Below, piece after piece: positions 6,338-64,000 of a DNA stretch of 64,000 nt. Under the pieces are notes generated by a model that made no database searches, was not told the origin of the DNA, and saw nothing but the letters and a program-made list of their open reading frames with translations. The stretch covers positions 30,090 through 94,089 of the forward strand of contig JBBIPP010000004.1 in NCBI GenBank assembly GCA_037442745.1, given 5' to 3'. Source of the DNA: an archaeon. Lineage in GTDB: Archaea; SpSt-1190; DYHY01. The number at the start of each line of letters is the position of its first letter. The stretch's first letter is position 1. The translations under genes were made by a program, and so were the position numbers.

Positions 6338-6357
6338 CACTTGAAACGCATCCCAAA

Positions 6358-6769: not shown

Positions 6770-6804
6770 AATTTTGAAAAAGAGAGTGCTTATTTTTCTT
6801 GCAT

Positions 6805-7639: not shown

Positions 7640-7684
7640 TTTTACTCAAAAGGTTATTAAACCTCAAAATATGCCTCAATTGCA

Positions 7685-7975: not shown

Positions 7976-8097
7976 GTAAAAAATTGGCTCTTTTTTGGGC
8001 TCATCTTTTATTTTTCCTTATCTTATTACCTTTGGTAGGCCATTGTACTTAAAGTTTATATACTACTTAAAAGTAAATATAAACTAAGGCGAGTAAA

Positions 8098-8400: not shown

Positions 8401-8436
8401 CTATTTTAATCCGAACAGGCATTGATTTCTTCCCTG

Positions 8437-32211: not shown

Positions 32212-32213
32212 AA

Positions 32214-33263
32214 ATGGATTCTATTGAGAAAAAAGCCCCGCACACATTCTCAATTATATCTGGAAAGGGCGGGGTCGGAAAGACGACAGTCACATCCAAC
32301 CTTGGAATTCTTCTGGCCTCGGAGTTCGGAAAAAAGGTTCTTGTTATTGACGGAAACATCAGCACAGCGAACCTCGGGATACATCTGGGCTTCATAAAGT
32401 GCCCTGTCTCATTCCAGGACGTCATTGACAAGACAATAAAGACTTACCAGGCGGTTTATGTCCACAAATCAGGGCTTAACATAATTCCGGCCTCCCTTTC
32501 AATGGAGCACGAGCAGCACGACTATCCGGCGAACCTTCTTTCAAAAAGGATACAAAAGATTGTCTCAGACGTCAAATTGCACTATGACATTGTCCTGATT
32601 GACGGAGCAGCGGGGATTAGCGGAGAGGCAAAAGCCGCGATTTCCGCGAGCGAATCAGTACTGGCAATAACTGTTCCGGAAATTCCGACAGTCACCGCCA
32701 CAATAAAGGTTGTCGAGACTGCAAAAGAGCTAAAAGTCCCTGTTTTCGGGATTGTAATGAACCGCGTCAGGGGGGGAAAAATCGAGGTTTCAAAAGACGA
32801 GATAGAGCGCCTCTGCAAAGCAAAGGTAATATGCATTGTCCCGGAGGATGAGGCTGTCCGGGAGAGCACGTCCCATAGGGAGCCTGTCTCGGTCATACGG
32901 CCAAACTCGGCGTCAGTCAAGGAGCTCAGGAAGCTTGCGGGGAAAATTGTTCTGGCATCCGAAGGAAAATCAGAGGATTGTCCGGCGCCAAAGCCGAAAG
33001 GAAAATTGTTATTCGGGATTTTCGGGAAAAAGAGGGTGGCTCCGGAAAATTTGCTTCTCTCACAGGGAAACGATAAAAAGGCGCAATGGGCTCTAGCTCC
33101 CTCTCAAGGAAGCCAAAAGGAGGGCAGGGAGTCAGAGGGGGATCAGATAGAGTCAGGGCATAGCAGGCCCGCGAAATCGGACCCTAGGAAAGACAAGGAA
33201 AATCCGGGGAAAATTGATGGAAAGAAAGGATGGTGGTTTTGGTTTTTTGGGCGGAAGAAATGA
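32214..33263 (+). CDS. minD: MinD/ParA-family ATPase with extended C-terminal tail
   Basis: SGKGGVGKTT, IDGN...ANL, LIDGAAG, GIVMNR, VPED..V; two amphipathic motifs (LLFGIFGKK, WWFWFFGRKK). Confidence 0.88.
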   Translation: MDSIEKKAPHTFSIISGKGGVGKTTVTSNLGILLASEFGKKVLVIDGNISTANLGIHLGFIKCPVSFQDVIDKTIKTYQAVYVHKSGLNIIPASLSMEHEQHDYPANLLSKRIQKIVSDVKLHYDIVLIDGAAGISGEAKAAISASESVLAITVPEIPTVTATIKVVETAKELKVPVFGIVMNRVRGGKIEVSKDEIERLCKAKVICIVPEDEAVRESTSHREPVSVIRPNSASVKELRKLAGKIVLASEGKSEDCPAPKPKGKLLFGIFGKKRVAPENLLLSQGNDKKAQWALAPSQGSQKEGRESEGDQIESGHSRPAKSDPRKDKENPGKIDGKKGWWFWFFGRKK

Positions 33264-36200: not shown

Positions 36201-36765
36201 TGAGAATACCGAAACTCTCCTAAAGGATGCGGAAACCGCTCTCGCATCAGCCCCGAAAAAGCCTTCCGGGCTGGCATTTGCCCTCCTTTTCCTCTTAATT
36301 CTGGTAATTGGTGCCGGAGGGGCAGGATTCTACTACATGCAGAAAGACAGGGCCGGATTTTCACTGAAAATGAAAATAATGGAAAATGGGATGTCTAAGA
36401 TTTTCAAGGAAGGGCTGAAAGAGTCCGGAAAATCGTCCGCCCCCATTTCAAAGCAGGCGCCCCAGCCAGCATCCCAAAACAAACCAGTCCAACAAATTCA
36501 GCAGCAACAGCCCCAGATGTTCCAAAAGTTTCCGGTTTCGCCCCAGCAGCAGGTTGCACAGCTCTATTCTCTATCTCCAGGACCATATTACTCACAGAAC
36601 CGCTCGTTTTTCTCGCCAGCCCCCGCCCAATATTCCCAGCAAAGAGGGGTGTATTTTCCCCAAGCCTCTCCCCGGCTCTCCCCTCAGAAGGGAGCTGGAT
36701 TCTCGGGAGGTGTGTCAGGAGGATTCTCTCTCCCGGCGTCAATTCAGCAGAAAAAGAAATTCTGA
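33217..36765 (+). CDS. Large cell-surface glycoprotein with Cys-rich module, coiled coil, TM and Q/P/Y-rich cytoplasmic tail
   Basis: Signal; dense N-x-S/T; V.N.GE (CARDB-like) repeats; CC-rich segment; TM near aa 1020. Confidence 0.87.
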   Translation: MERKDGGFGFLGGRNELPFLSVIFALILVISPAVSLGEIYNSTLEFFYPNGTSVQNPNGGQSVVPILVLYVKNADAPAPAFNLTGIEVFVTNSSLAIPQCYNWNLWGLDQTEPQRPNNTYSHGNGYSVSIGGPLTPEGWLVSTNASISCNLTYLNLINQSNPLNLTNVSKWNFTKGYPLSNVSSWNVSGNNTYSPAFVVRFGGIFGNTILLPYENTVTLVSRGLFSNGTHTEYTGNVTRSFRVLFPNPSSRFSALPNASVEIGSSVELFSINTTDSSGVPFNSSRIVFNVTNSSAFSSVYVLNSSSGFVSANSSFSEGAISLSLGNFTGPGNFSVIGNLSSTAQISSFSLAFSPRGGLEYLAPVNLDPVNYTYLPSPLAWNFTDANSSSLDRTVQISGYSVNFSYSIPNFSRAQTKQFNLTIVPLSGTPKYHLISPVSGFTIAGASVASGNGSCFRNSTTLATCFSNNPGNLTISINATASAVSGKSNWSIQSFSEFGASYANSSAFETESQGPAILNVTLMTPLPPNLTLGQTGVSVTFLVNNTGEARALSVQPNVSIAHSNSSLPPIAPPALSPLSIDPNSSVTFKVSFSIPANYSPGNLSVFLNATGHDANLLSIVSSTANSSNATVLRPATAIVSKAELSVTQGYLSRNYTISASILNLGESRLKEIGYSISPKSLGISTVSPKSSLPEAEIGGFSNFSIPIEISSSAQNGNFSFNLTITGKDSSSLATISNWTTINVSIENPLKMSLVPENLTYYDVEAGKELNLSVLLSSIDGVEISGVSLLFGNSTAFSISPISAINVSGEVSTINFSLSPLENATTENKTRIVSIQAVSSGGLRSDAVLLTLYTIPKIICGGKNEACCVARALVSECKEGNLCCSGTCRLASEGKCCSAIWKPSFLCCADADCGENEICALNNGTCITKPFGEHEANKLLSSLSVKLNDLEKRIADSKKGGFNTENPETILQAIDLKMRQARNLITEKKYLDAKKLIENTETLLKDAETALASAPKKPSGLAFALLFLLILVIGAGGAGFYYMQKDRAGFSLKMKIMENGMSKIFKEGLKESGKSSAPISKQAPQPASQNKPVQQIQQQQPQMFQKFPVSPQQQVAQLYSLSPGPYYSQNRSFFSPAPAQYSQQRGVYFPQASPRLSPQKGAGFSGGVSGGFSLPASIQQKKKF

Positions 36766-47320: not shown

Positions 47321-50300
47321 TCAGTTCTGTCTATTCTGCTGGCCCCGGCCGAGTTTCGCGTAAAACACAATTGAATATGCGAATGCAAGGATTAATGCGA
47401 ATATCAACATCGGCACTTTCAGGCCAATTTTGATTTCTTTGAGGTCATTTTCGGACTCTTCGTTTTCAGGCAATCCGTCGGGCATATTCGGCCGGGAATT
47501 CAGGGAGATAACGGATATTGCAAAAGTTGAGAATCCCGGGCTCTCTGATGTGTAGAAAAAGTGCGTTCCGTTCGTCCCGGTAATTGTCGCATTCAATATG
47601 AACCAGCCTTTGGAACCTGTCGGATTCCTCAAAAGGACTACTTCGGAAGGGTGCGCTCCTATTGAGCGAAGCCAAGATTCTTCGACTGAGAACCTAAAAG
47701 TTGCTGAAAAAATTTCCTCCGGATTCGTGGAGTTGGCAATAAACCCGGAGTATATCTGGGCTTTTATGATTGACAAGTTCTCCTGTAAAGGCGCGATTTT
47801 GATTGTTGTCGGATTTTTCAAGTCCCTGAAAGAGAGAGAAACTGCTTGGAGAAACGGCGTTCCGGAAAGATTTGGGACGAGTTCAATTGGCTTTTTTGAT
47901 TCTGTTCCCCGGAAAATAAAAGTCTCGAAAACCCCGTTTTCCCTCCTTTCGCGGTTGGGGCTGTATTGCTCATTTACCCCGGGGTGTTTGGGCATTTTTT
48001 CGTGGTCGGAAATCGGAACGGATGTTGATATGAAAAACCTGCTTACGCTCGAAGAGCCTCTGTTGGAAGATACTGTTGTCGTTGTCGTTACCTGAATTGT
48101 CGATGTTGTTGTTGTCTGGACAGATGTTGTCGAGGTAGTCGGGCATCCGCAGTCGCTTGCGCAGTCGCATGCAAGTTCACCTGTCTCGCAGAATCCGTTC
48201 CCGCAAACAGGGCTTGTGGTGAAATTGAACTGGCAATATGCTGTGTTTGAAGCTCCGTATTTGACTGACAAATTGAGAGTGTGGTTTCCCGCAAGGGGCG
48301 CGGAAAAATTCAGGGAAAAATTCCCATCTGCCGACGAATTGGACTGGACTGTCCCGTTGAGCGTTCCGGGAGAAACTGACCAATTGACTTGCGCACTAAC
48401 CGGAACAGCGGTTCCGTTCAAATAGTCGAGGAGAGCCAAGCCTGAAACAAAAAAGTTTTCGGTTGAATTTGCGCTCACTGGCAGAGTAACGTTCTCAATT
48501 GTCGCATTCGCCCGTTCGAAAACCGAAAAATGTGCTGGAAGGACTGGGGAAATCGAATCCCCTTGCCAGAACTCTTGATGCTCGGTTATGCATCCTGTTT
48601 CCGGGCAGAAAGCGGAAAAATTTGAGCTGTTTGAGAAATATGCAGAGAAATTTGAAAGATTCAGGCTAGTGTTCAGAAAAACCGAAAAAACGGGAATGCT
48701 CCCGTTCAACTTCTCCGAAGATTCCGAGAAAATCACCCATTCAATTCCTGTCCAATTCGTTGAGGAGGCGTTCTGGGACAATATTGTTATGCTAACGTTT
48801 TCATCCCCTAGAAATGCGCTCTCAAAGGAAAATGTGGGCGGAAGGGCGAAGCCAGTCTTGTTCGCGAAGAAAGTCCCGACCCCCCTTCCAAAGGTCGCGT
48901 TTGTGGAAGCGGAAAGCGTCAGGTTGGAGGAATATGCCGGGAGAATTTGAAAAGTCGCGTTCTCCAGTACGGAAAATCCAAGATATGTGCAGTTCAAGGA
49001 GGCGTTCAGTTCCCCGGAAGAAGCGTTTGTCGCGTTCCATTGGAGGAATTCCAAGGAGACGTTTCCGCCTTCCAAGAAAGCAATGGAAGAATTGGAAAGA
49101 ATTGTGTCGCCGAGGACGTTTCCGGTGCACGAGGCTCCAGACAAATCAACGCCTGTCGGGCGAAGGACTGCGGAAAATGTCACGTTTTCATTCAGCCAGA
49201 CGGAGGAGTTTCCTGCCGAAAAAGATGCGATTTCGAACGGCTCAAAGCAGGAAAGTGAGAGGTTCTTTGATTCTGTCAGGTTCGCGAAATCTAGGCGCGC
49301 CGAAAAAATTTGCGTTCCGTTGATTGGGCACGATGCGCTGAACGAATGGCTTTCCGCTCCTTGGGCCGATGAAACAAGTCCTCCTGAAGAATTGAAAACC
49401 GAGAAATTTCCTGCGCCAAACAGGGAAGATAGGGAAAATGACCCGTTCTCCCAGATATTCCGTTCAAGAGCCTCGCCAGAAGTGGCATTAAGGATGCTCG
49501 AAGATGCCCTAATTGACAAGTTCCCGGAATTTCCGGACACGAACTTTACTGCCAAATAACCAGTTCCTGTAAAGTTCGGGAAATATGAGAATGATTCGTT
49601 CGAGCCAGTCTCGTTTGAAACTGACCGGTTTAGGATTGACGGCCTTCCGTATTGGTCGGGCGAGCCAGAATAGAGGAAAACGTCAGAATCGGTTCCTGAA
49701 GATCCTGCAAGGAAAAACATGGCAGTAGAATTTGCAACGAGCGAAACCTTTCGTGCGAAAACTTTCCTTCCTGCGTTCTCGTTCGAGAGGGAAAAGTTAG
49801 CGCCAGTCCCGTTCAACGTCAGATTGTAGAGAACTGATTCGAGGGCTCCGTCAATATTCATCCTGCCATAGCCCTCATAGTTGTCAGGTTCTCCCCTGTT
49901 GAGGACTGGGTTATAGAGACCGTTCTCCCGGAGCCGGTTGGTCTCGGTTGCAGTCATCAGGAGAAGCATTTTCACTTTAAGGGCCTGCTCTTCCGAATAG
50001 TTCCAAGGCTCGCCAACAGAGTCCATTGCCTGGACAATAAGTTGCACTGCCCCAGTAACATGGGGAGCGGCCATTGAGGTTCCGGCAAGCTCGTGGTAGT
50101 AGTTGTCCGCAAGCCCGGTGGAATTGGACATTGTCGAATTTATTTTCAATCCGTTGGCTATTGATCCCCCGGGAGCGAGAATGTCGACCTGCCTTGTCGA
50201 GTTCCCGAGGCTAGTGTAGCTGGTCAAGTTTCCGGTATCGCTCAATGCTCCGACTGCAATGCATTTTACTGCCTGAGCAGGGCTACTCATTCTCCATCCT

Positions 50301-51205
50301 AGTTCTCCACGGTTTCCGGCCGAACATATTGCGACAACTCCGGAAGAAACAAGGGCGTTTGTTGCGGAATCAATTGAGGAATCAATATATCCGTTCGAGT
50401 CGAATCCCAGGCTCATGCTTGCGGACGTTATATTGTAGATTTCCTTGTTTGCGCTAGTCCATGAAAGGGCGGAAACAATGTCCGAGATTAGGCCGGACCC
50501 GAGATAATCAAGTATTTTCAGCGCAATGAAACTCGAATTCGGCGCAACCCCAGCCATGCTGGAATTGACAACACCTGCCCCAGCAACAGTGCCCAAAACG
50601 TGCGTCCCGTGGCCAATAACATTGTTTGTTGCGTTGACATGGTCGTCATAGGGAATCTGGTTAGAATTAACGAAATCCTGCCAGGCGGAAAGTCTTGAAA
50701 GATTCAAGTCCGGGTGATTCCCATAGACGCCGGAATCGAGAACTGCCGAGCTCTTCCGGGCAAGCCCTTTCAGGGAATAGTTGTTCTCAGGAAGAATCCC
50801 GGCAACTTTCTTTGAGATGTCCATATGCGCTTCAACTCGAAGAGTCCCGTCTCCGATTGAAACAATCTTTTCTGCCGGGAAATTCGAGGAAACGAGGGAG
50901 TCGAGGGCGGGACCGGACGACCTGAATTCGACGAAAACGGAGCCCCGGGGATTTGTGAACTTGCTTATTCGTCCCCGTCTTCCGCCAAGTTTCTCTATTG
51001 CCAAAAGCTCGGTTTTTGTGAGGTTTTCCAGCTCTATTATTATTGGAATTTCCTCAAACGATGAGGAAACTGAGCCAGCTATTTTTGCTCCTTTGAGTTT
51101 TTGGGAAGATCCTGCCGAAAGAGAGGCATTTGTTCCGAAAAGAAGGATTCCAAGAACAAAAAGAGCGAGGAAAATTACAACTCCAGCCCTCTTGCCGAAA
51201 CCCAT
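47321..51205 (-). CDS. Membrane-anchored S8 subtilisin-like serine protease with Cys-rich motif, Thr linker and PGF-pre-PGF domain
   Basis: VLDSG, GHGTHV.G, SAGN, GTSMAAPHV catalytic set; CGNGFCE.GE..CDC..DC; SPGFSTFAI; C-terminal TM. Confidence 0.92.
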   Translation of the reverse strand: MGFGKRAGVVIFLALFVLGILLFGTNASLSAGSSQKLKGAKIAGSVSSSFEEIPIIIELENLTKTELLAIEKLGGRRGRISKFTNPRGSVFVEFRSSGPALDSLVSSNFPAEKIVSIGDGTLRVEAHMDISKKVAGILPENNYSLKGLARKSSAVLDSGVYGNHPDLNLSRLSAWQDFVNSNQIPYDDHVNATNNVIGHGTHVLGTVAGAGVVNSSMAGVAPNSSFIALKILDYLGSGLISDIVSALSWTSANKEIYNITSASMSLGFDSNGYIDSSIDSATNALVSSGVVAICSAGNRGELGWRMSSPAQAVKCIAVGALSDTGNLTSYTSLGNSTRQVDILAPGGSIANGLKINSTMSNSTGLADNYYHELAGTSMAAPHVTGAVQLIVQAMDSVGEPWNYSEEQALKVKMLLLMTATETNRLRENGLYNPVLNRGEPDNYEGYGRMNIDGALESVLYNLTLNGTGANFSLSNENAGRKVFARKVSLVANSTAMFFLAGSSGTDSDVFLYSGSPDQYGRPSILNRSVSNETGSNESFSYFPNFTGTGYLAVKFVSGNSGNLSIRASSSILNATSGEALERNIWENGSFSLSSLFGAGNFSVFNSSGGLVSSAQGAESHSFSASCPINGTQIFSARLDFANLTESKNLSLSCFEPFEIASFSAGNSSVWLNENVTFSAVLRPTGVDLSGASCTGNVLGDTILSNSSIAFLEGGNVSLEFLQWNATNASSGELNASLNCTYLGFSVLENATFQILPAYSSNLTLSASTNATFGRGVGTFFANKTGFALPPTFSFESAFLGDENVSITILSQNASSTNWTGIEWVIFSESSEKLNGSIPVFSVFLNTSLNLSNFSAYFSNSSNFSAFCPETGCITEHQEFWQGDSISPVLPAHFSVFERANATIENVTLPVSANSTENFFVSGLALLDYLNGTAVPVSAQVNWSVSPGTLNGTVQSNSSADGNFSLNFSAPLAGNHTLNLSVKYGASNTAYCQFNFTTSPVCGNGFCETGELACDCASDCGCPTTSTTSVQTTTTSTIQVTTTTTVSSNRGSSSVSRFFISTSVPISDHEKMPKHPGVNEQYSPNRERRENGVFETFIFRGTESKKPIELVPNLSGTPFLQAVSLSFRDLKNPTTIKIAPLQENLSIIKAQIYSGFIANSTNPEEIFSATFRFSVEESWLRSIGAHPSEVVLLRNPTGSKGWFILNATITGTNGTHFFYTSESPGFSTFAISVISLNSRPNMPDGLPENEESENDLKEIKIGLKVPMLIFALILAFAYSIVFYAKLGRGQQNRQN

Positions 51206-54943: not shown

Positions 54944-56200
54944 ATGCAGAGGGTGAAGGGAGCGTTTTTACTGGGGAGTTTGGCACTTCTCATTGGAATT
55001 ACTTCTGCCTGCGGAGCTTCAGTCCCTCAGAATCCTCCTCAAACGGTTGCCAGAATCCAGGGAAACGCGTCTTGCTGGCTCTCTGAAACCGCCCCGCCAG
55101 TTCCGGCAGGAAAGACTGAATTCTCATTCGGAGAGGGGATAGGGGCAATTAATATTTCCGGAGCCCCCGGGTTTCAAGTAAATCCGGGAGAAATTGTTTA
55201 TGGGACGGAAGCAGAATATGTAGGTTCTGACGGAACATCTTATTCAACAGTGGGCGTTTTTTCCAAATACGACCCGCAATCCAAAAAATATTGCCAGAAT
55301 TATCAGAATTATTTCATTGACCCGTTCAAACTGGAAGAACTTGATGCGAAAGGGCTTGTCGTTAGGGGCGTTCCTGCGACAGGGGCGAGCATCCCATCCA
55401 ATCAGTTAGAGAGCCAAACAAATCAAAGCGCGCAAACAGGGAATGAAAACAGCCTCGCTCAACTCCCACCGAAAATTCCTTATTATTACAATAGCTCCCT
55501 CAGAACTTCCTGGCAGCCAGTTACAATAAATTCCCCTTGGCTCTCGAGGCTTTCTCGCTTCAGCGAAATTCCCGGCGCCTTGAATTTCAACGGGAAAGGC
55601 GGGACATATGACGAATGGGAAGGAGCGTGCCATGTTGCCAGGACTCTTGCGAACATTGAGGAGTTCGAGAAGATTCTCGGGGAAAACTATTTCAACCAAG
55701 GAATCCCTGTTCCAGACAATCTTACAGATCCTGAAACCGGAAAAGTCTGCAAGCTTTTCAGCCCGCTTTCGCGCTATGGGAACGCAGAAATACTCAATTC
55801 CTATCTAGGTAACGACCGGGGAACGCTTGAAATTGAGATAGCGCGCTACAGAGAGGAGACTGGCATTGACTTGAGCGGGCTCCTCTCGGAAACCGGTTCG
55901 GGACTTGGCTTGGACGAGTATTATCGCCTCTCGGAGGCGAAGAACATCCCGGTTGTCCTCCTCCTGGCAATTGGGGAAACCGAGAATCGCAACAGGGGCG
56001 GAAACACGTTCCAATGCAGCCTTTCAACAAACCCAGTCGGAACGGAAAGTTTCGAATGCGCGCTTAACCATTTGTCTGGAGACATTTCGGCAATGTCTTC
56101 CAGATATGGGCCGAATTCATATGCAGAGGCAATTCTCGCATATAACAGGGGAAAAAGCGGGGCGCCGAAAATTATTGACGCCCTAAACACCCTTCCGTGA
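54944..56200 (+). CDS. Predicted lipoprotein with C-terminal lytic-transglycosylase (SLT)-like domain
   Basis: Signal with lipobox-like ITSAC; IPVVLLLAIGETE and RYG...AILAYNRG resemble the SLT motifs I and III. Confidence 0.65.
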   Translation: MQRVKGAFLLGSLALLIGITSACGASVPQNPPQTVARIQGNASCWLSETAPPVPAGKTEFSFGEGIGAINISGAPGFQVNPGEIVYGTEAEYVGSDGTSYSTVGVFSKYDPQSKKYCQNYQNYFIDPFKLEELDAKGLVVRGVPATGASIPSNQLESQTNQSAQTGNENSLAQLPPKIPYYYNSSLRTSWQPVTINSPWLSRLSRFSEIPGALNFNGKGGTYDEWEGACHVARTLANIEEFEKILGENYFNQGIPVPDNLTDPETGKVCKLFSPLSRYGNAEILNSYLGNDRGTLEIEIARYREETGIDLSGLLSETGSGLGLDEYYRLSEAKNIPVVLLLAIGETENRNRGGNTFQCSLSTNPVGTESFECALNHLSGDISAMSSRYGPNSYAEAILAYNRGKSGAPKIIDALNTLP

Positions 56201-56210
56201 ATGGAGGAAG

Positions 56211-56639
56211 CTAGTCTCCGAGCTTTTCTGCAACAAGGAAAAGAAACGACTTCTTCGGGCTCCCAAAAGTCCTTGAATAGCTTATTCCGGAGGTCTCCGA
56301 TATTTTCATTACGAACTGCCTTGTGACGAGAAATCCGTATTTTCCAAAGAACTCGTCAAATTGAGTTGGCTTTTCTCCGCCGGAAATGAGGAAAATGAAT
56401 TTTCCCTTACCGCGAAGAGCTTTCCCGTTCTTTCTCAAAAAGGCAAATTCGTGCGCGCGAGAGTAGTTCCAGGAAACAACATAATCGCAAGGAGCGGTCT
56501 TGCCCTCGAAAACCTCCTTTGCCATCCTTTTTTTCAGGAAATGGGGAACTTCTGATTCGGGCGTTCCCGAAAAAAAACAAATTTCTTTTCCCCTGAAATT
56601 CTGCTCCCGAAGGAGCTTTTCCGCCTCCTTTGAAAGCAT
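56211..56639 (-). CDS. Hypothetical protein (degenerate methyltransferase-like fold possible)
   Basis: Abuts the asnS stop (TAAATG); K.L...GKFIF. Confidence 0.6.
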   Translation of the reverse strand: MLSKEAEKLLREQNFRGKEICFFSGTPESEVPHFLKKRMAKEVFEGKTAPCDYVVSWNYSRAHEFAFLRKNGKALRGKGKFIFLISGGEKPTQFDEFFGKYGFLVTRQFVMKISETSGISYSRTFGSPKKSFLFLVAEKLGD

Positions 56640-57935
56640 TTACGGATATACTCGCTTCATTGTCCTTGGGAAAGGCATTGCGTCCCTTATGTGCTTCAGC
56701 TTGCAGACCCAACGGACAACGCGGTCGACTCCAAGGCCAAACCCGGAATGCGGGACGCTCCCGTATTTCCGCAGATCGAAATACCAGCCATAATCCTTCT
56801 CGTTCAGGCCGAACAGCTCAAGTTGCGTCCGCAGTTCTTCCGTCTTGTCGCACCTCTGGCCACCACCTATTATCTCTCCATAGCCTTCGGGGGCAAGGAG
56901 ATCTCCCGCAAGAGTGTGGGTGGGCCTCTCAGGGTTCGGCTTGTGGTAGAATGCCTTGAGCATTACAGGATAGCCGGTCACAATAAAGGGCTTTTCGAAC
57001 TGGCTTGCAAGAACGAACTCCTCGTCCGCCCCGAGGTCGCTTTCGTAGTTCAATTTCAATTCCGATTTCTCGTTAATCAAGTCAATTGCCTTTTCATAGG
57101 GAATTCTTGGAAAGTTTCCCTCAGCAGCCTTCTCCAGGGGCCCAAGAGGCCTCTTCAAAAAAGCGAGTTCAGCCTTCCTCTCGGCCAGGACTTTTTTCAC
57201 AATGTGGACAATTATCTCCTCTTCGACTTTCATTATCCCGTCGAAATCGCACCAGGCGAGTTCGCACTCTGCATGCCAGAATTCAGTCAAATGGCGCGGG
57301 GTCTTGCTTTTTTCCGCCCTAAAAGATGGGGCAATCAAGTATTGCTTCCCAAGGGAATAGATTAGGGCCTCGTTATAGAACTGGGCTGACTGTGAAAGAT
57401 ACGCCTTTCTTCCGAAATACTTTATTGGGAAAAGGGTCGAGCCCCCCTCGCAGGCAGCCGTGACAAACATTGGTCCTGTCGCCTCATAGAACCCGTTCGT
57501 CCTGAAATACTCGTGTATTGCCTCGAAAACAGTGTGCCTAACTTTCAGTATTGCGTTCATTTTCCTGCTTCTGAGCCAGAGATGACGGATGTTCATCAGG
57601 TGGGTTGCTGACAAGTCCTTCGCAATTGGAAAGGGCGTCTCGGCAAGACCTACTATCTTGAATCCGGTAAGGGCAAGTTCATACCCTCCGGGAGCCCGCT
57701 CGTCTTTTTTCACAACGCCAGTCAGTTCAACGCTCGATTCCCGTGTGACTTTTTCAACATCCGCCCAGAAAGAGTCCTGAGCCCGGGAGACTGCCTGGAC
57801 AATTCCGGTCGGGTCCCTAAGAACGAGGAAAATCATTTTTCCGCTTGAGCGCTTCCGGTGAATCCATCCACGGAGGGCTACTTGGGCGCCTTCGTTGTGC
57901 ATTCCTGAGCAAACATTCCTTATTTCGCTGAACAT
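56640..57935 (-). CDS. asnS: Asparaginyl-tRNA synthetase
   Basis: LRGWIH..R..GK, RHLWLR, EGGSTLF, FRAEKS.T.RHLTEFW, GEIIGGGQR, YGSVPHSGFGLG. Confidence 0.93.
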   Translation of the reverse strand: MFSEIRNVCSGMHNEGAQVALRGWIHRKRSSGKMIFLVLRDPTGIVQAVSRAQDSFWADVEKVTRESSVELTGVVKKDERAPGGYELALTGFKIVGLAETPFPIAKDLSATHLMNIRHLWLRSRKMNAILKVRHTVFEAIHEYFRTNGFYEATGPMFVTAACEGGSTLFPIKYFGRKAYLSQSAQFYNEALIYSLGKQYLIAPSFRAEKSKTPRHLTEFWHAECELAWCDFDGIMKVEEEIIVHIVKKVLAERKAELAFLKRPLGPLEKAAEGNFPRIPYEKAIDLINEKSELKLNYESDLGADEEFVLASQFEKPFIVTGYPVMLKAFYHKPNPERPTHTLAGDLLAPEGYGEIIGGGQRCDKTEELRTQLELFGLNEKDYGWYFDLRKYGSVPHSGFGLGVDRVVRWVCKLKHIRDAMPFPRTMKRVYP

Positions 57936-57990
57936 TGGGAACGAATTGCCTGCATATGTTTATAAAAAAGTTGGAGGAAACCTTCTCATA

Positions 57991-58653
57991 ATGTCGGTTT
58001 TGGGGCAAGTCTCGGTAGTTGTTCCAGTTCATAACGAGGAAAAACGGCTCCCTTTGCTCCTCGGGAGCGTCGACTTTTCCCTTTTCGGGGAGGCAATATT
58101 CGTCCTTGACGGATGTACTGACAATTCGGGCGTCATTATACCGAAAAGCTCGAAGAAAATTGTCCTCAAGAAGCGCAGGGGAAAGGGCTTTGCAATGCGG
58201 GAAGGGTTCCTTGTGTCGAAAAAGAAATTCGTCTGCTTTATTGACGCTGACGGGACTTTCTCCCAAAAGCAAGTCGATGGAATCTGCACTCTGGCAAAAA
58301 GAAAGGGCGGGCTTGTTCTGGCTGAGAGGCGAACTTTCCCGAAAAAACGGGCTTTCAAAAGGAACGTCCTGAGGGTAATTTCCAAGGCTCTTTTCGGAAT
58401 AACTGAGAGGGACACGCAGTGCGGGCTCCTCGTTATTGAGAGAGAGAAATTCGCCGGAATCTTCGGGAAACTCTCCTCAGCCGGCTACGAGCTCCCAATA
58501 GAATTGATTTTCAAGGCTAAAAATGCGGGGATCAACGTAAGCACACACCCTGTCGATATTCCTGAGGAAAATTACGATAATTCCACTTTCAACGAGACGC
58601 TCGACCCCCTGAAAATGCTTTTTTCGCTGATAGGGCTGAGGTTGCGTGGCTAG
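57991..58653 (+). CDS. GT2 glycosyltransferase
   Basis: SVVVP.HNE, DGCTD, GKG.A..EG, FIDADG, DTQCG. Confidence 0.88.
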   Translation: MSVLGQVSVVVPVHNEEKRLPLLLGSVDFSLFGEAIFVLDGCTDNSGVIIPKSSKKIVLKKRRGKGFAMREGFLVSKKKFVCFIDADGTFSQKQVDGICTLAKRKGGLVLAERRTFPKKRAFKRNVLRVISKALFGITERDTQCGLLVIEREKFAGIFGKLSSAGYELPIELIFKAKNAGINVSTHPVDIPEENYDNSTFNETLDPLKMLFSLIGLRLRG

Positions 58654-59413
58654 GATTGGGCATTCAAAGGAAATTGTCCTGACTTTTGACCTTGAGGAAT
58701 ATTCAGTCCCAAATGAGTTCGGGGAAAAGACAGAGCACGATTTAGCCCCGTCAGAAAGGGCTATAGATTACCTACTTTCGGCGTGCGGACATGCTACTTA
58801 TTTCACGACAATTGGTTTCGCAAGAAGGTTCCCGAAAAGAATTAGGGAGATTGCGAAAAGGGGGAATGAAATTGCCCTTCACGGGGAAATAGGGCGAGCG
58901 GGGCAAGAAAAGCTGGTTCTTGAGAAAATATGCAGAAGAAAAGTCGTTGGCTTCCGCGCGCATATGTTCAGAGCCAAGATGGAGGAAATAGCGGGCCTTG
59001 CAAAGGAAGGCTTCCTCTATGATTCCTCGATAAACAAGACAGTTGTTCTTGGGAGGTATTCTAACTTGGGGACAATCCCGAAAAAAATTGGAAAAATTGT
59101 CGAACTTCCAATAACTGCTCCCTTGGGAATCCCGCTCTCGTTCGTCTGGTTTCGCACAGTTCCATTCAAAGCCCTAAAATCCCTATCAATTTTCTCTGGA
59201 GACAATCCCCAAGTCCACTATTTCCATCCGTGGGAATTCTCCAAAGTAAAGGAAGGAAGGAACCCTTTGGCAAAACTCTCGGCATACGGATGCGGGACAA
59301 GAGCGTTCAAAGAAAAGTTCGAAAAATACTTTGCATGGGAGGAAGCTATTCGAGGGGGACGGTTTTCATTGGCTTGTGAGTCTGCGGCCTCTTTTTCGCA
59401 TGCTTTCCGGTGA
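58646..59413 (+). CDS. Polysaccharide deacetylase (NodB/CE4 family)
   Basis: LTFDLEE, ATYF, EIALHG, GFRA, YDSS, ELPI, YFHPWEF. Confidence 0.88.
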   Translation: MARIGHSKEIVLTFDLEEYSVPNEFGEKTEHDLAPSERAIDYLLSACGHATYFTTIGFARRFPKRIREIAKRGNEIALHGEIGRAGQEKLVLEKICRRKVVGFRAHMFRAKMEEIAGLAKEGFLYDSSINKTVVLGRYSNLGTIPKKIGKIVELPITAPLGIPLSFVWFRTVPFKALKSLSIFSGDNPQVHYFHPWEFSKVKEGRNPLAKLSAYGCGTRAFKEKFEKYFAWEEAIRGGRFSLACESAASFSHAFR

Positions 59414-59720
59414 GAAGCTCCAATTTTCCGTTCCTTCCGATTGAAAGCTGCTTGGCTCCTTTCCAGCTCCTTATGAACCCGCCCTCTATCTTTATCCTTG
59501 TCCCTTTTTCAATTCCCTTAGACTGGTCTCCCCAGAGAATCAGAAGAATGTTCGCAGTGTCGTCCTTCAGCGTCGCATGGGTAAGGGACGTTTCCTTTCC
59601 ATAGCGGGTGACAACTGAGCGGGTCTCGCTGATTGAAATGATTTCCCCCTCAAGCTCTACATTCGTATGCCCGTCCTTCAAATCAATTATTTTGAAAACG
59701 GCTATTTTGTTTCCCTCCAA
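59346..59720 (-). CDS. Single OB-fold ssDNA-binding protein (SSB/RPA-like)
   Basis: KI.DLK.G..NV...G.I, LKDDT..I.L.LW, G.KQLSIGR.G. Confidence 0.88.
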   Translation of the reverse strand: MEGNKIAVFKIIDLKDGHTNVELEGEIISISETRSVVTRYGKETSLTHATLKDDTANILLILWGDQSKGIEKGTRIKIEGGFIRSWKGAKQLSIGRNGKLELLTGKHAKKRPQTHKPMKTVPLE

Positions 59721-59721
59721 A

Positions 59722-60030
59722 TTATTTGAAAAAAACGAACTTGTTCTTCTCCATTATTTCGAATGCCGACGAGAGACGGGAAAGCATCTCGTCCTTTGTC
59801 ATTGCAGTGTTTTTAACCAAATGGAACGCAATGTCTGAAACACTGTTCTTTCCGTCAGATAGAGCGATTGCCGCCAAAAGCACGTCAGGAATTGCGACAA
59901 ATGAGATTTCGTCAACAGTCCCGAAGGTTTCCCCGTCTTTTTGGAAGAGCCGGAGTGTCTGGTTCCTTTTTGGCTTGAGAGCCGAATAATCCTTGTGCTT
60001 GAAAGTCTTGGGAGCTTTTTTCGCCGGCAT
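59722..60030 (-). CDS. Hypothetical protein, PqqD/winged-helix-like
   Basis: ..LSDGKNSVSDIA..L...pattern. Confidence 0.6.
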   Translation of the reverse strand: MPAKKAPKTFKHKDYSALKPKRNQTLRLFQKDGETFGTVDEISFVAIPDVLLAAIALSDGKNSVSDIAFHLVKNTAMTKDEMLSRLSSAFEIMEKNKFVFFK

Positions 60031-60082
60031 ACGGGGGTTAATAATGGTGAAACATATAAGCGTTTCTTACGAAACCCCTCTA

Positions 60083-60166
60083 CCGGGATGAAGATTAATT
60101 GAGGGTTAACCTAGTACGTGGCCCAAAATGCCATTGACAATGAGGATGTGACCCGATACTGACCGG
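60083..60166 (+). ncRNA. Double-guide C/D-box sRNA (predicted target 23S C1920; second guide possibly ~G1948)
   Basis: TATA CATATAAG 60053; stem CCGG/CCGG; box C ATGAAGA 60088-60094; D' CCTA 60110; C' ATGAGGA 60140-60146; 12-nt guide; box D CTGA 60159-60162. Confidence 0.75.
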
Positions 60167-60295
60167 CCATGTCCGCTAGGACAGGCAAGTTAGTTCTGCA
60201 GTCAAAAGTCCAGTCCGAAGACTGGGGAGACCGGCTAGCCTAGCAAAATTATATTCTTGCAGTCTAAACTCTCTGGGAACACGCGAACCTATTAC

Positions 60296-63200
60296 TCACT
60301 TTCCAAAGCGTCCGGTTTCCAGGGCTTTCCCGAAAACATATTTTGTGACTGCCTTTCCGACTTGCCCGTAGAGTTCCCTTGTTTCGAAAGCAACACGCCC
60401 CGGCAGGCCGGCAGATTGCCTCGCTACATATGTTGCAAGGCCTATTTGCGAGTCAGTTTCCGAGAGCATTGCTGTCCGAAGCTCATTTTCTGGAAGGGTT
60501 GCAATAGTTTCCGAATATATTCTTGAGACTTCAGAGACGAGCGCATCCTCAGGAACGCTTGCCGAGGAATTGCCTTTTCTCGCGCCGGCATAAGAAGCAG
60601 TCTCAATTACGGACGCCAAGTAATTTTCGCTTCCGGGAATGACTTGAGCAAGCTTCCTCAATGCGAGTTCAACATCAACATATCCTCCTTTTCTTGCAGA
60701 GTCTATTATTCCGGAGACTGATTCGGAAACAATTCTTGTCGCATATTTTCGGAGTTCCAGCTCGGGCAGTTTTGCGATTTCGGCCCGCATTTCGAGGTAT
60801 TCGAGGGAAGTATTTGCCAGCTCGTTCGATTTCGCAGTCTGCCACTTCAACGAGTAAGCTAACTTGTCGGTCGTTTCCTTGAGATTGTTCCTCATATTCT
60901 TGTTGAAATAGTCGATGAGTAACCCTGCGTCCTGTCCGCCCACCACCACATCCGACTTGTCAACGCCTTGCGCGGTTGCAATTAACCCTATTGCAGTCCT
61001 GAATTGATCAGATATCATCGGGTCGTTCGAATTATAGACCCTGAAAACATTTCCGGGGCTGTCCCTTGCAACCCTATTAAGGAGGTGGTGCTCTTCTACT
61101 GAGTTTGAAGGAACGTCAGCTACAATCAGCCTCATTGACTTGCCGTTGGTCGGGAAGTTTACTCCCCGTCCAGCTTCTGGAAGAACTATTGTTATTCCAT
61201 CAGAAATCATTTTGTAGACAGTGGATTCGGATAGAGCGTCTTGGCCATAGACAACCCGGACGTTCGTTTTTGTCCCTTCCAAGAGCGCTTTTCCGAGATC
61301 AACTGCATTCTGTACTGTATTCACAGCAACGACAACGCCCTCTCCTTTCGAGAGCCCTTCCTTTGCTAGGTCAATTACTTCTGAATAGTGTGATTTCTTG
61401 TCGTTCAGTATTATTATCCCGCCTTCCTTGGGAACGAACCTTCTCTCGGAAACAGTTTTCCCATCATCCGCGTATTTGACATACCTGAACTCCCTTCCGA
61501 CAGCCCCTATATCGCGAGGCTTTGCCGGAACAAAAGAGCCGTCTTCCTTCACTTCAACAAGGGAAAATAACCCCTTTGAAATGCCGTCTTCTGCATATGT
61601 CGGGACTGCTTCAACGTCAGTTGAGCCGAGAATTTTTAGAGTGTCTCCTGCGCCTCCAAGAGTTGCCGAGAACGCCACAAAGGGGTTTGACGCAAGGGAA
61701 ACTTTCAGGGCGGAAAGCTCATAGGGAGAAACGCTCTGGGTTGTTGTGAGGGGAACTCCTTCAATTGCTTCCAAGTAATTCTGGGTTTCATCAGAGAAAT
61801 AGAGTCCCCCAATGATTTTCCCGTCCCGCATTACCATTACTTTTCCCCCAACAACTTCATAGTTCCGTCCGCGCTTGTTGTATGTCTTTGTCGCTATGAG
61901 TGCTTTTGCGGAATCCTCGTTTCGTTCAGACAGGAATCCTCTGAGGAGTTCGTTCTCTTTCGGGTCGTTCCCTCCGCCGAGGGACAAAAGAAGTGAGACG
62001 AATCCGGGGGAATTGCTCTCGTCGAGTTCCCCGTTCTTGTCAAAAACGAAATCCCTTCCGTAAACAGCTGTCGGAAGCGCCTTTTCAATTCTTTCTGAAA
62101 GTTCAGAAACGTCCGATTCCGAATATCCCGAATAGTCGACAGTCTCAAGAACGCCAAGGGAAGATATCCCCTTCTGTTCCGCGAATTTTCTCTCGAGGGC
62201 GTTCTCAAGCATTATTTTCGCAAGGGCGTATTTCCCGACTGCAGGAGCGTCATATAGCCCTGTCGATTCCAGTTTCTTTGTGAAATTTGCGGTGAATTCG
62301 AGGCCGTTCTGCGCGCTCTCGACAACGTCATATATCTCCCTTGCGACATAATCTGCGAGCATCGAAGTGTCGAGACTCTCAAAGGAGTAAACAAAGTCTG
62401 CCAATCCTCCGGTTTTCGGGCTTGCTCGCTGGACACTTTCAGCTCTAATTGCATTAAGCTTCTTTTGCGCTTCTTCCTTGGAAAGCCCCTTTGTTACAAA
62501 AGCTTCGAGCGCTTTCTGCAGCTTTTCTCCCTTGAGTGTCGGATCAATTCCGACTTCCTTCGCAATCTGTGCTTCCGGGGAAAGGCCTTCTTTTGAGTAT
62601 TCCTTCTTGAACTGCCGAAGGCCTCCCTGTGAATTGAGGGCGGAATAAACATAGGTAAGGTGCGAGTTGTCAACAGGAATTTGTATGCTCGGCACGACAT
62701 TTTCAAGAAGCTTTCCTACAGTCTTGTCCGCCTCGTCAATTACGAAATACGCCCTGTTTTTTTCAATGAAATGTTCTGTTTCCCCTGTCGCAATCTGTTT
62801 CCTTATTGCCGAGGAATAGGCATCGGGAGTTGAGAATATTATTTCGCTGGCTTTGGCAGAATCTACTGAAACGGGCATTAGATGGGGGTTGTCTGCGGAA
62901 ACTGCCCCTGTCTTTAGGCCCCATATTGCGAAAGGAAGGTATTCCCAATCTCCTTCTGCCGCCTTTTCTCCGTAAAATTTCGCAATCCCGGCTTTGGAGA
63001 GTCTTGCGGAATATTCGAGACCCGGAGAGAATGTGAGGTCTGTTTTCGGGTCAAACCCTTGGGAATCGAGGAATGCAAAGAAATCTGCGACTTTGCCTTC
63101 GGAGAGCGCCTTGTTGAACCCTTGGGAAATTCCGAGTTCTATTTTCTCAAGACCAGATACTGCATTGAAAGTATTTTGATCGAGATTAACTGGCCCTCCG

Positions 63201-63850
63201 TTTCTTGAAGTAATGAACGACACTGCTTTTGAGAATCCTCCGTCAACATCATATTTGAACCCTATCGGAACTCCGCTTGAAGTTCTCCCAAGAACGCCGA
63301 TTTCGGTTATTCCAAGTTCCTGATAAATTCCGCCAGTCAGTTCAGCGTCCCTCAAGACAAGATAATCGTTTGAGGACATTACAAATGTCTTTCTTCCGGT
63401 TTTCCTTCCAGCTGCCGCAAAAAGGGAGACTGCAAAGGGAATCTCATAGGTCTTACCCTCGTTTGTCGCAACCTCCAAAGAATTGGAATTGTCATAATCA
63501 GAGCCTTTTGCTGGGAGAATTGCCCTTATTCCGGTCGCAACCTGTATTGGGCGAAGAGTCATTCCCGCCCGCTTTTTCGTTGCGGAACAGACAGCTTTCG
63601 CAAGCTCGACAATCGCATTCTCAAGCTCGGGAGAATCGAGTTTCTGGCTCCCAAAACCCAAGAAACCTCCCTTTACTTTTCCCTCAACAGGCCAGACCTC
63701 AAAGCCCTCTTCATTCTTTCCCGACCGGACAAACGGCTCAAGGAGTGAGACTGCATTCTCATAAATCTCCCTTGGAGCCTTTGTTCCGTCAAAACCCCTT
63801 ACTACGTCCTCTGCAAGGGAATATGCATATTTGAATTTCTTTGAAGGCAT
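60296..63850 (-). CDS. Divergent SecA-like SF2 ATPase (1184 aa)
   Basis: Colinear SecA motifs: GMTLRPIQ, EVATNEGKT, SSNDYLVLRDAE, VIDEAD, NYEVVGGKV...G..FSD..QNYLEAIEG, FSATL, VPT, AGRGVNF, LLNRVAR..PG. Confidence 0.82.
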   Translation of the reverse strand: MPSKKFKYAYSLAEDVVRGFDGTKAPREIYENAVSLLEPFVRSGKNEEGFEVWPVEGKVKGGFLGFGSQKLDSPELENAIVELAKAVCSATKKRAGMTLRPIQVATGIRAILPAKGSDYDNSNSLEVATNEGKTYEIPFAVSLFAAAGRKTGRKTFVMSSNDYLVLRDAELTGGIYQELGITEIGVLGRTSSGVPIGFKYDVDGGFSKAVSFITSRNGGPVNLDQNTFNAVSGLEKIELGISQGFNKALSEGKVADFFAFLDSQGFDPKTDLTFSPGLEYSARLSKAGIAKFYGEKAAEGDWEYLPFAIWGLKTGAVSADNPHLMPVSVDSAKASEIIFSTPDAYSSAIRKQIATGETEHFIEKNRAYFVIDEADKTVGKLLENVVPSIQIPVDNSHLTYVYSALNSQGGLRQFKKEYSKEGLSPEAQIAKEVGIDPTLKGEKLQKALEAFVTKGLSKEEAQKKLNAIRAESVQRASPKTGGLADFVYSFESLDTSMLADYVAREIYDVVESAQNGLEFTANFTKKLESTGLYDAPAVGKYALAKIMLENALERKFAEQKGISSLGVLETVDYSGYSESDVSELSERIEKALPTAVYGRDFVFDKNGELDESNSPGFVSLLLSLGGGNDPKENELLRGFLSERNEDSAKALIATKTYNKRGRNYEVVGGKVMVMRDGKIIGGLYFSDETQNYLEAIEGVPLTTTQSVSPYELSALKVSLASNPFVAFSATLGGAGDTLKILGSTDVEAVPTYAEDGISKGLFSLVEVKEDGSFVPAKPRDIGAVGREFRYVKYADDGKTVSERRFVPKEGGIIILNDKKSHYSEVIDLAKEGLSKGEGVVVAVNTVQNAVDLGKALLEGTKTNVRVVYGQDALSESTVYKMISDGITIVLPEAGRGVNFPTNGKSMRLIVADVPSNSVEEHHLLNRVARDSPGNVFRVYNSNDPMISDQFRTAIGLIATAQGVDKSDVVVGGQDAGLLIDYFNKNMRNNLKETTDKLAYSLKWQTAKSNELANTSLEYLEMRAEIAKLPELELRKYATRIVSESVSGIIDSARKGGYVDVELALRKLAQVIPGSENYLASVIETASYAGARKGNSSASVPEDALVSEVSRIYSETIATLPENELRTAMLSETDSQIGLATYVARQSAGLPGRVAFETRELYGQVGKAVTKYVFGKALETGRFGK

Positions 63851-63936
63851 TTGTAGTTACTTAATAGTAATACATACTTTATATACTTTACCATTTGTTA
63901 GTTGCTTAAATAAATAGCCAATATTTGGGCTTATTG

Positions 63937-63999
63937 TTAATTCTTGCCAACAGCCAGTTTCTGCTTGACACCTTCAAGATAGGTCAATGCAATTGAGAC
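63937..63999 (-). CDS. Probable 3' end of a gene entering from beyond the window
   Basis: Open frame ..VSIALTYLEGVKQKLAVGKN*; too short to identify. Confidence 0.35.
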   Translation of the reverse strand, partial: VSIALTYLEGVKQKLAVGKN

Positions 64000-64000
64000 A

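Follow-up and report, generated by a model that had tools for sequence, protein, structure and literature searches.

A highly divergent SecA-family ATPase encoded in an archaeal genome

The minus strand of a 64,000-nt stretch of DNA from an archaeon (the window; contig JBBIPP010000004.1, here called C4, of assembly GCA_037442745.1) carries at positions 60296-63850 a single intact open reading frame (ORF) of 1184 codons and a stop, with an ATG start and no (0) internal stops. Its product, P0001, is a very divergent SecA-family protein, and its setting is genuinely archaeal. SecA is the protein-export motor of bacteria. An earlier preliminary description of this DNA had stated that SecA is generally regarded as absent from archaea, a view also found in textbooks, and two reviews indeed state that there is no SecA homolog in archaea and that the export motor is unknown (PMC13673990, 2026; PMC6098224, 2018). 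No report of an archaeal SecA was found in the literature searched, in which only statements of its absence were met with. The overall explanation developed below, namely that the gene for P0001 is genuinely archaeal and looks expressed, and that it specifies a full-length, extremely divergent SecA-family ATPase that would act in export, is given an even chance of being right.

All SecA motifs that had been listed for the protein could be read from its translation, in the order in which they occur in SecA: GMTLRPIQ (residues 96-103), EVATNEGKT (126-134), NDYLVLRDAE (161-170), IDEAD (371-375), YEVVGGKV (664-671), GLYFSDETQNYLEAIEG (682-698), AGRG (893-896), and LLNRVAR (923-929). A MAFFT alignment (A3) of 63 rows, comprising the P0001 clade of three sequences and 60 SecA-family proteins, placed residues Q103, T129, E131, G132, K133, N161, Y163, L164, D372, E373, D375, Y664, G677, A893 to G896, R926, R929, P932, and G933 of P0001 in invariant or near-invariant SecA columns. 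The ATPase motifs GKT, DEAD, SAT, AGRG, and RxxR have been retained, and as the GKT sequence, the DEAD box, and the arginines are intact, it is plausible, to judge from the sequence, that P0001 hydrolyzes ATP.

The Pfam model SecA_DEAD (PF07517) matched residues 74-182 of P0001 with an E value of 3.9e-9 (36.6 bits, the cut-off being 24.6), the match spanning only positions 53-148 of the 290 positions of the profile. The SecA and SecA2 models of NCBIfam matched the same stretch of the first nucleotide-binding domain (NBD1), at scores far under their cut-offs. When the sequences in the PDB were searched, all 21 matches at E ≤ 1 were SecA or SecA2, with a best value of 3.2e-5. An exhaustive phmmer search of 1.84 billion cluster representatives returned 12 proteins at E ≤ 0.001, one of which is an ortholog with 82 % identity while the other 11 matched at 7e-7 to 7e-4. 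Ten of these 11 weak matches (P0012 was left out) were scanned with Pfam, and all ten are strong SecA_DEAD proteins. Only three close sequences were present among the 1.84 billion representatives. The ten best named clusters in the ESM Atlas all belonged to the SecA family, with a score of 0.94 and 195 of 256 features in common.

A generic superfamily 2 (SF2) helicase might also score with SecA_DEAD, as a match above its cut-off is not specific by itself: the model gave matches above cut-off in 11 of 14 control genomes, although only 10 of the controls are bacterial, and it also responded in two archaeal controls. As these archaeal controls match the model as well, profile-profile alignment is taken as the decisive evidence. 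Using hhalign, residues 638-945 of P0001 were aligned to positions 289-554 of a SecA profile at 99.4 % (E 4.7e-22). The aligned block includes the strand-turn-strand stem YEVVGGKVMVMRDGKIIGGLYFSDETQNYLEAIEG, motif III, and the whole of the second nucleotide-binding domain (NBD2) with AGRG and both arginines of motif VI, a domain for which the Pfam model P-loop_SecA (PF21090) gave no match. NBD1 on its own was aligned from residue 74 to 187 with SecA 65-164 (95 %, E 3.8e-8). SecA differs from other SF2 ATPases in that its motifs II and III are separated by an inserted domain, which a two-strand stem joins to the motor. A stem of the SecA type (Y-x-V..G-x-V...G-L-H-Q-A-x-E-A-K-E-G) lies in the hhalign block of P0001, with Y664 and G677 in invariant columns, and NBD1 motifs of the SecA_DEAD type were recovered by both Pfam and hhalign, the columns of the DEAD box and of motif Ib being aligned.

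Structure prediction with AlphaFold2 (AF2), for which the 60 SecA-family rows were added to the alignment, produced a model with a mean predicted local distance difference test score (pLDDT) of 60.5 and a predicted template modelling score (pTM) of 0.50; pLDDT values were 80-92 in NBD1 and NBD2 and 70-80 for residues 1020-1130. Listed ranks 1-31 of a Foldseek search with this SecA-rich model were SecA or SecA2 (E 1.7e-18 to 1.3e-8), and the first chain that is not a SecA was DinG, at 2.4e-5. By VIA-align the model was superposed on SecA 4ys0 with a Z score of 21.7 and an rmsd of 4.3, 608 residues being aligned over model residues 13-1178, as compared with a Z score of 15.7 and 358 residues for DinG; the alignments with SecA covered around 600 residues and those with helicases around 350. 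The best structural matches of this model are, in other words, SecA and SecA2 rather than other helicases. In the BFVD fold search no match was better than 2.1e-6, a value obtained with unnamed proteins of ~610 aa. Since the model was shaped by the SecA-rich alignment, it is not independent evidence for the fold of the C-terminal part. The significant hhalign block with the SecA-only stem and motif between motifs II and III, the PDB matches that are all SecA, and the far longer structural alignments with SecA than with helicases make it extremely improbable that P0001 is a generic SF2 helicase not derived from SecA. The earlier view of P0001 as a SecA homolog that is collinear with SecA, carries large lineage-specific insertions, and has no Zn finger can be upheld.

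The order of the domains could be followed along the gene, all of the following positions being on the minus strand. Residues 1-73 (63632-63850) form a basic N-terminus, which starts with MPSKKFKY and is followed by helices; it matched the N-terminus of SecA only in a forced global hhalign alignment (low mact, low column confidence), and its pLDDT is below 50 in both AF2 models. The start MPSKKFKY has been kept in the ortholog described below, and because the open frame amounts to 1186 codons and extends only two codons beyond the ORF, the start is well defined. The first half of NBD1 (residues 74-190; 63281-63631) contains the Q-like motif GMTLRPIQ, the Walker A sequence VATNEGKT, and motif Ia (NDYLVLRDAE), and was identified by Pfam and hhalign, with pLDDT values of ~80-87. 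It is interrupted by a lineage-specific insert (residues 191-331; 62858-63280), the size of which, estimated earlier at ~140 aa, was measured as about 141 aa. The insert corresponds to a gap in all 60 SecA rows of the MAFFT alignment and showed no similarity to SecA (hhalign) or to PDB sequences. NBD1 resumes with the motif Ib region (SEIIFST...) and the Walker B/DEAD box IDEAD (residues 332-385; 62696-62857), of which D372, E373, and D375 occupy invariant columns.

The DEAD box and the YEVVGG strand are separated by 288 aa (376-663), and a mostly helical body of ~270 aa (residues 386-655; 61886-62695), with pLDDT values mostly below 60, is found where SecA has its preprotein cross-linking domain (PPXD). 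The returning stem strands YEVVGGKVMVMRDGKIIGGLYFSDETQNYLEAIEG and the last part of NBD1 with motif III (FSATLGG) follow at residues 656-750 (61601-61885), within the hhalign block 638-945. NBD2 (residues 751-950; 61001-61600), with motif V (PEAGRGVNF) and motif VI (LLNRVARDSPG, both arginines retained), was assigned by hhalign and has pLDDT values of 79-92 at residues 810-860; it carries an additional beta segment of ~50 aa (about 755-805). The remaining 234 residues (951-1184; 60299-61000) make up an all-helical region that lies where SecA has its scaffold, wing, and two-helix finger. Predicted secondary structure and collinear alignment point to this putative assignment; position, size, all-helical content, and a 54-residue helix (974-1027) in the AF2 models would fit the scaffold/wing domain (SecA_SW, PF07516), and both MAFFT and global hhalign (low mact) lay the C-terminus along scaffold, wing, and finger. 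The two-helix finger of SecA inserts into SecY and has an aromatic residue at its tip; in the line-up with P0001, IGLATYVARQ...ELYGQV...VTKYVF stands opposite the A3 consensus LRxGIGLRAYGQxDPLxEY..., with a gap of 14 columns. P0001 ends with ...ETGRFGK, and as it contains only one cysteine (C88) it has no Cys-rich C-terminal Zn motif, the absence of which had been noted before. The tail CPCGSGKKYKxCC of the SEC-C motif was seen only in the canonical rows of the alignment. This Zn-binding motif is not universal in SecA.

Comparison of P0001 with its ortholog on contig L008 from another metagenome gave a dN/dS of 0.18 at a dS of 0.72. By segment the ratio was 0.12-0.21 everywhere, in the motor as well as in the insert, with the exception of the C-terminus, the least constrained part of the protein (0.34). 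P0001 is under purifying selection.

The archaeal nature of the host genome (G000; 1.136 Mb in 20 contigs, 94.5 % complete, 0.6 % contaminated) was confirmed. Its small-subunit (1442.7 bits) and large-subunit rRNAs match archaeal Rfam models best within their clans, and the window encodes Trm5b/Taw22-type and archaeal-type PGI/PMI enzymes as well as an asparagine--tRNA ligase. The window represents the last 64 kb of C4 (94,089 nt) and ends where C4 ends, so that the ATG of P0001 is only 150 nt away from the contig end, a caveat on its placement. This location in the last 3.7 kb of C4 might be taken as a sign of an assembly or binning artefact in which a bacterial or viral SecA fragment was joined to an archaeal contig, as might the low GC content at third codon positions (0.47, about 1.8 SD under the mean of 385 long ORFs). 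P0001 is nevertheless encoded in a real archaeal chromosome and not in a bacterial chimera. A single Logan contig of 11,508 nt, made with a different assembler, spans 56000-63975 with 0 differences and even depth in two sequencing runs, which may come from the source sample and hence may not be independent, and joins the P0001 gene to that of asparagine--tRNA ligase and beyond; run X3 gave no coverage, and the sequencing runs listed as holding the DNA include no RNA run. At 63946-63975 the assembly graph forks into a 1080-nt node of double depth, and the same 55 nt end contig C5 of this genome. The contig break is therefore due to a second copy of the end of a HerA-like gene on C5 and is not a junction with foreign DNA.

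The ortholog (P0003, 79 % identical) is encoded on contig L008 (20.9 kb), the sole locus in a metagenome scan. It is preceded by genes for a HerA/FtsK-like ATPase, a small membrane protein, a Big_13 surface protein, CTP synthase, and a PspC protein. The same gene order was found on contig C19 of the host genome, which ends inside the HerA-like gene (91 % identity), and the last 64 nt of the window are the 3' end of that gene. A protein identical to P0001 is on record on a contig of 199,806 nt, the codon usage of P0001 is typical of the genome (r 0.89, 96th percentile of 385 ORFs), and no bacterial sequence is nearer than about 31 % identity over about 100 aa. An artefact of assembly or binning is accordingly most improbable, and the bacterial chimera that the preliminary description had allowed for is not supported.

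When all searches made here were taken together, a SecA-family gene was present in 4 of 17 genomes of the phylum; the family is, thus, not unique to the genome of P0001. A six-frame search with P-loop_SecA flagged an ORF for a SecA-like protein of 1460 aa in the sister species G004 of the same genus (G004:C5:198-4580; L039, plus strand). This protein was aligned with SecA by hhalign at 97 % and 96.4 %, and its Walker A (TGEGKS) and motif VI (RGRAGRQGE) sequences are nearer to the SecA consensus than are those of P0001. The two proteins are about 31 % identical over 119 aa in NBD1 and have the C-terminal part of the NBD1 insert in common (Smith-Waterman score 70 versus 30.1 ± 4.9, reached in 0 of 500 shuffles). 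No similarity was detected between their PPXD-position regions, C-termini, and N-termini, for which 171, 421, and 263 of 500 shuffles, respectively, reached the score. The shared insert indicates that the genus holds a fast-evolving SecA-like clade defined by this insert. A 541-aa orphan encoded directly after the 1460-aa protein has no relative in the PDB, and neither of these two proteins nor a 783-aa orphan of G004 to be discussed below had a match at 1e-3 in the host genome of P0001 (tblastn).

G005 and G006, the two genomes of a family in the same class with large genomes (3.6-3.8 Mb, about 60 % GC), both carry canonical-length SecA genes (821-847 aa). The P-loop_SecA search located them at G006:C10:80857-83322 (minus strand; L040:6858-9323) and on G005:C41 (L041, about 6333-8825), and the genes are syntenic across the two species and 93 % identical. 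A further G006 gene, on contig C36 (L011:569-3043), specifies a protein 100 % identical to P0016, which is on record with all SecA Pfam domains; it is 63 % identical to the C10 copy. Contig C10 of G006 (136 kb) also encodes an MCM helicase (E 1.5e-146) and carries a gene cluster that is 48-51 % identical to contig C7 of the host. The canonical SecA genes of G005 and G006 contradict the statement that archaea lack SecA, unless the bins are chimeric (contamination 5-6 %). They are 29 % identical to P0001 over 117-133 aa, no closer than bacterial SecA, and each of these genomes has one SecY. On the same contig C10 a 114-nt match (L052:15265-15378, minus strand) to the 71-position Rfam tRNA model was not called by ARAGORN and may be an intron-containing archaeal tRNA. 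In a tree of 30 SecA-family rows the P0001 clade stood on a branch of ~9 changes per column, at least 11.6 from any other row, with long-branch warnings. As this branch is saturated, the tree gives no placement of the clade and carries no claim about a donor or about descent from the canonical forms. A scan of genome contigs found no relative, and tblastn of P0001 against 50,697 phage records gave no match.

Of the known systems, the housekeeping SecA1 of bacteria (4ys0, 3din, 6itc), the best structural match, has the same order of NBD1 motifs, DEAD box, inserted domain with stem, motif III, NBD2, and helical C-terminus as P0001. The latter differs from SecA1 in that the two are only about 15-17 % identical and in having the 141-aa NBD1 insert, ~50 extra aa in NBD2, an unrecognisable inserted body of ~270 aa, C-terminal domains undetected by sequence, an asparagine for a glycine in Walker A, and no Zn tail; it comes from an archaeon, whose SecY is likewise archaeal, and its distribution is patchy and accessory. 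It resembles the accessory SecA2 of Gram-positives and mycobacteria (6sxh, 6t4h, 4uaq) in looking non-essential and lineage-specific, and the structural match to SecA2 (VIA-align Z 18.5-20.1) nearly equals that to SecA1. SecA2 coexists with the housekeeping SecA1, often together with SecY2 and accessory Sec proteins, whereas the genome of P0001 has no other SecA_DEAD match above cut-off, a single SecY, and no accessory Sec-system genes near the locus. A 759-aa ORF of the host (C10:23133-23267, L003) had a sub-threshold SecA_DEAD match of 18 bits and is probably another SF2 helicase.

Secondary SecA_DEAD proteins, divergent SecA-like ATPases outside the general pathway and of unproven function, are described in a study on Planctomycetes, Verrucomicrobia, and others (Kamneva et al. 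2015, PMC4452313). According to this study, these are bacterial proteins of ~550-700 aa without the C-terminal part (no SecA_SW, or no more than a small piece of it), with a recognisable PPXD and NBD2, and encoded next to type-I-secretion-like genes. The best weak matches of P0001 are of this type (560-674 aa, with SecA_DEAD, PP_bind, and P-loop_SecA and without SecA_SW), and similar clusters are nearest to it in the Atlas. In contrast to them, P0001 is 1184 aa long, has a 234-aa C-terminus, belongs to an archaeon, and is encoded among genes for HerA/FtsK-like, surface, and OB-fold proteins and asparagine--tRNA ligase. The 1460-aa protein of G004 is like P0001 in its genus, its divergent SecA character, and the shared end of the NBD1 insert, and unlike it in its locus and its neighbour, the 541-aa orphan.

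The 3' end of a gene co-directional with that of P0001 lies upstream of it at 63937-64000 (minus strand), where it is cut by the end of C4; it was recognized by comparison with the ortholog locus and C19. The product of this gene, P0015, has, from N- to C-terminus, a signal-peptide-like sequence, ~120 aa with N-glycosylation sequons, a hydrophobic anchor, and a HerA/FtsK-type P-loop domain. In the gene order of the ortholog locus and C19, this transmembrane (TM)-anchored ATPase is accompanied by a small membrane protein and a Big_13 surface protein of 665 aa. The A+T-rich spacer of 86 nt between the ATPase gene and the ATG of P0001 (63851-63936, minus strand) contains blocks that are conserved in the ortholog locus, among them GTAAAGTATATAA about 25-40 nt before the ATG, and is likely P0001's own promoter. 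Downstream of the stop codon is a spacer of 265 nt (60031-60295, minus strand), and further on are an OB-fold/Ssb-like gene, a gene for a 102-aa protein, and, in the neighbourhood, that of asparagine--tRNA ligase. Two short elements in the downstream spacer (60254-60273 and 60148-60168) were also seen after the ortholog (L008:13511-13675), there in tandem with a period of ~72 nt, at the contig end. They are single-copy in the host genome; candidates are a terminator, a small RNA, or a remnant repeat. Neither a signal peptide nor a TM segment is predicted for P0001. The genome encodes one SecY, which is archaeal, and SecDF.

A second HerA-like locus is present at the end of C5, where the ATPase gene is followed by genes for a cytoplasmic orphan of 615 aa, an 8-TM protein of 300 aa, and a surface protein of 1481 aa (MG2/DUF11/CARDB). 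The 615-aa orphan has an ortholog (34 % identity) after the HerA gene of G003, a genome with the same HerA module plus a MinD/ParA-like ATPase. The paralogous HerA/FtsK-like genes (63937-64000 together with C19:7456-8070, and C5:91596-91650 on L034) share their 3' ends, which breaks the assembly. Both HerA loci combine a membrane ATPase, large TM-less and presumably cytoplasmic proteins, and giant surface proteins that bear signal peptides. HerA modules may be a system for the export or assembly of surface proteins, and the make-up of the loci fits the biogenesis of the envelope or of surface structures, which would offer plausible clients for P0001, although this evidence is circumstantial. 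At 28273-36765 (plus strand) the window encodes a Big_13/cadherin-like surface protein of 1312 aa, a MinD/ParA-like ATPase of 349 aa that is 40 % identical to that of the G003 HerA module, and an orphan of 1183 aa that has a signal-like N-terminus and, at its other end, a hydrophobic segment; the theme of the surface-protein module seems to be repeated here.

Some other features of the window stand apart from these loci. In a 1294-aa protein (47321-51205, minus strand) an S8 subtilase domain (E 6.8e-41) is combined with a long C-terminal part that is uncharacterised, and a 418-aa protein without a Pfam match (54944-56200, plus strand) has an N-terminus like a lipoprotein-type signal peptide (...LLIGITSACGAS). 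A 306-aa protein (2098-3018, minus strand) weakly resembles nucleotidyltransferases of the MntA and HalB types (E 9e-7 and 3e-6, respectively, under the cut-offs) and is possibly what is left of a toxin-antitoxin or defence system. A solitary 5S rRNA gene (6359-6475, plus strand) is located far from the SSU-LSU operon, which is on contig C8.

A number of observations weigh against P0001 being a SecA that functions in export. The Pfam models SecA_PP_bind, P-loop_SecA, and SecA_SW gave no match to P0001 at E ≤ 1, and three of the four SecA domains went undetected in this way, so that SecA_DEAD, above its cut-off, was the only domain recovered in the model search proposed earlier. The six-frame search with P-loop_SecA passed over P0001, yet it found canonical SecA in two relatives. 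The ~290-aa preprotein-binding region of the preliminary description stands as far as its size is concerned, but the body at this position is not recognisable as a PPXD: SecA_PP_bind (PF01043) did not match, hhalign of residues 376-640 gave an E value of 0.41, and no PDB match was obtained at E ≤ 1. Likewise, the segment that had been called scaffold-helix-like is collinear with the C-terminal domains of SecA, but no significant sequence similarity was found for the C-terminal 234 aa, neither with SecA_SW nor by local hhalign (E 0.38 for the scaffold/wing and 0.25 for the finger), nor in the PDB, and the Atlas gave no usable match. The line-up of IGLATY... with the finger consensus arises only in forced global alignments and is a lead only. 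In the Walker A sequence VATNEGKT an asparagine takes the place of a near-invariant SecA glycine, the first of GEGKT. With only the three orthologs as input, AF2 produced an unusable model (pLDDT 33), the model that matches SecA having been built from an alignment full of SecA sequences. P0001 as a query matched only 1 of 16 other genomes of the phylum, the match being a canonical SecA, which points to a patchy distribution. In addition, the rate at which P0001 evolves is high, as would sooner be expected of an accessory or conflict gene than of one for core export, and the loops of archaeal SecY that would face SecA differ from the bacterial ones. Finally, the corresponding slot in the sister species G004 (G004:C9:6563-8914; L029, minus strand) is filled by an unrelated helical orphan of 783 aa. 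The slot has the HerA-like gene on one side and the conserved genes for the 102-aa and OB-fold proteins on the other, the flanking genes being 76 % and 81 % identical in the two species, and the orphan has no match in Pfam, PADLOC, or PHROG.

The presence of non-homologous genes between such conserved flanks in two species of one genus could mean that P0001 belongs to a conflict system, either in defence or as an effector between organisms, with a hypervariable slot next to a HerA-type ATPase that would accommodate interchangeable large effectors or sensors. The two SecA-like proteins of the genus have diverged to an extreme degree, which agrees with this, as do a weak match of the HerA-like neighbour to the HerA models of PADLOC (2.9e-14), a near Atlas cluster that is 58 % viral, and a weak match to a PHROG of unknown function. 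However, there is no PADLOC family for P0001, the 783-aa orphan, or a 519-aa orphan, the phage records mentioned above contained no match, and the dN/dS of 0.18 gives no sign of positive selection overall. The HerA-like ATPase, with its extracellular domain, TM anchors, and surface-protein neighbours, looks more like a component of envelope biogenesis than like the cytoplasmic HerA partners in defence. A role in conflict is accordingly considered improbable. This includes the suggestion in the preliminary description that the protein might be delivered to act on a host translocon, which found no support: P0001 lacks a signal peptide and a TM segment, and its context gives no hint of its secretion.

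Another possibility is that P0001 is a motor of SecA fold which no longer uses SecY and works in the cytoplasm or with a different membrane partner, such as the adjacent HerA/FtsK-like pump. It could then unfold proteins, serve giant surface proteins as a chaperone or loader, or translocate or unwind nucleic acids. The parts that contact SecY, the PPXD body and the C-terminal domains, are precisely those that are unrecognisable, and in the Atlas the nearest clusters consist of short SecA-like proteins (547-764 aa), not of housekeeping SecA, with the best weak sequence matches being of the same type. SecA-like modules are also reported from giant toxins and effectors (PMC8195603, PMC3482391). 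The co-directional HerA/FtsK ATPase gene 86 nt upstream and the OB-fold/Ssb-like gene downstream speak for this reading as well. On the other hand, the SecA-specific stem and the collinearity from N- to C-terminus are maintained under selection. The HerA gene stays in the sister species while the slot downstream of it holds an unrelated gene, from which it follows that the pairing of HerA with P0001 is not obligatory; the conserved promoter-like blocks in the spacer suggest a separate transcript, and the conservation of the OB-fold and 102-aa genes does not depend on P0001. A role independent of SecY is therefore regarded as a doubtful but serious alternative.

The reading preferred here is that P0001 is still an ATP-driven motor that handles polypeptides, serving as an accessory, lineage-specific export factor, a proposal whose chances are put somewhat below even. 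The motor and the stem would have been retained to grip and move a polypeptide, while the parts facing its partners would have been rebuilt. An unfolded chain would be pushed across the membrane after being gripped in a clamp to which the inserted domain, NBD2, and the long helix of the C-terminus contribute, the clients of P0001 possibly being some of the very large surface proteins with signal peptides that are encoded at these loci. The dedicated export pathway that had been suggested before would fit the family and the neighbourhood of P0001. The single archaeal SecY channel of this genome is the most likely partner, although docking of P0001 onto it is itself only a tentative proposition. 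Equally tentative is the wider scenario in which an archaeal lineage took up SecA as a post-translational motor on SecYE-beta, with canonical forms in the large genomes and fast-evolving forms laden with inserts in the small ones.

In conclusion, what drives post-translational Sec export in archaea is an open question, and P0001 bears on it. Together with the divergent form of the sister species and the canonical forms in two relatives, it supplies concrete proteins to set against the archaeal SecY. As the stem and the motor have been kept while the PPXD body and the C-terminus were free to change, P0001 shows which parts of SecA are indispensable. If SecA does work on the archaeal SecYE-beta, archaea would have yielded their first known motor ATPase of the Sec system and a natural experiment in which SecA has been re-fitted to a Sec61-like channel; if the motor of P0001 has been uncoupled from SecY, it would be a new example of the reuse of the SecA fold.

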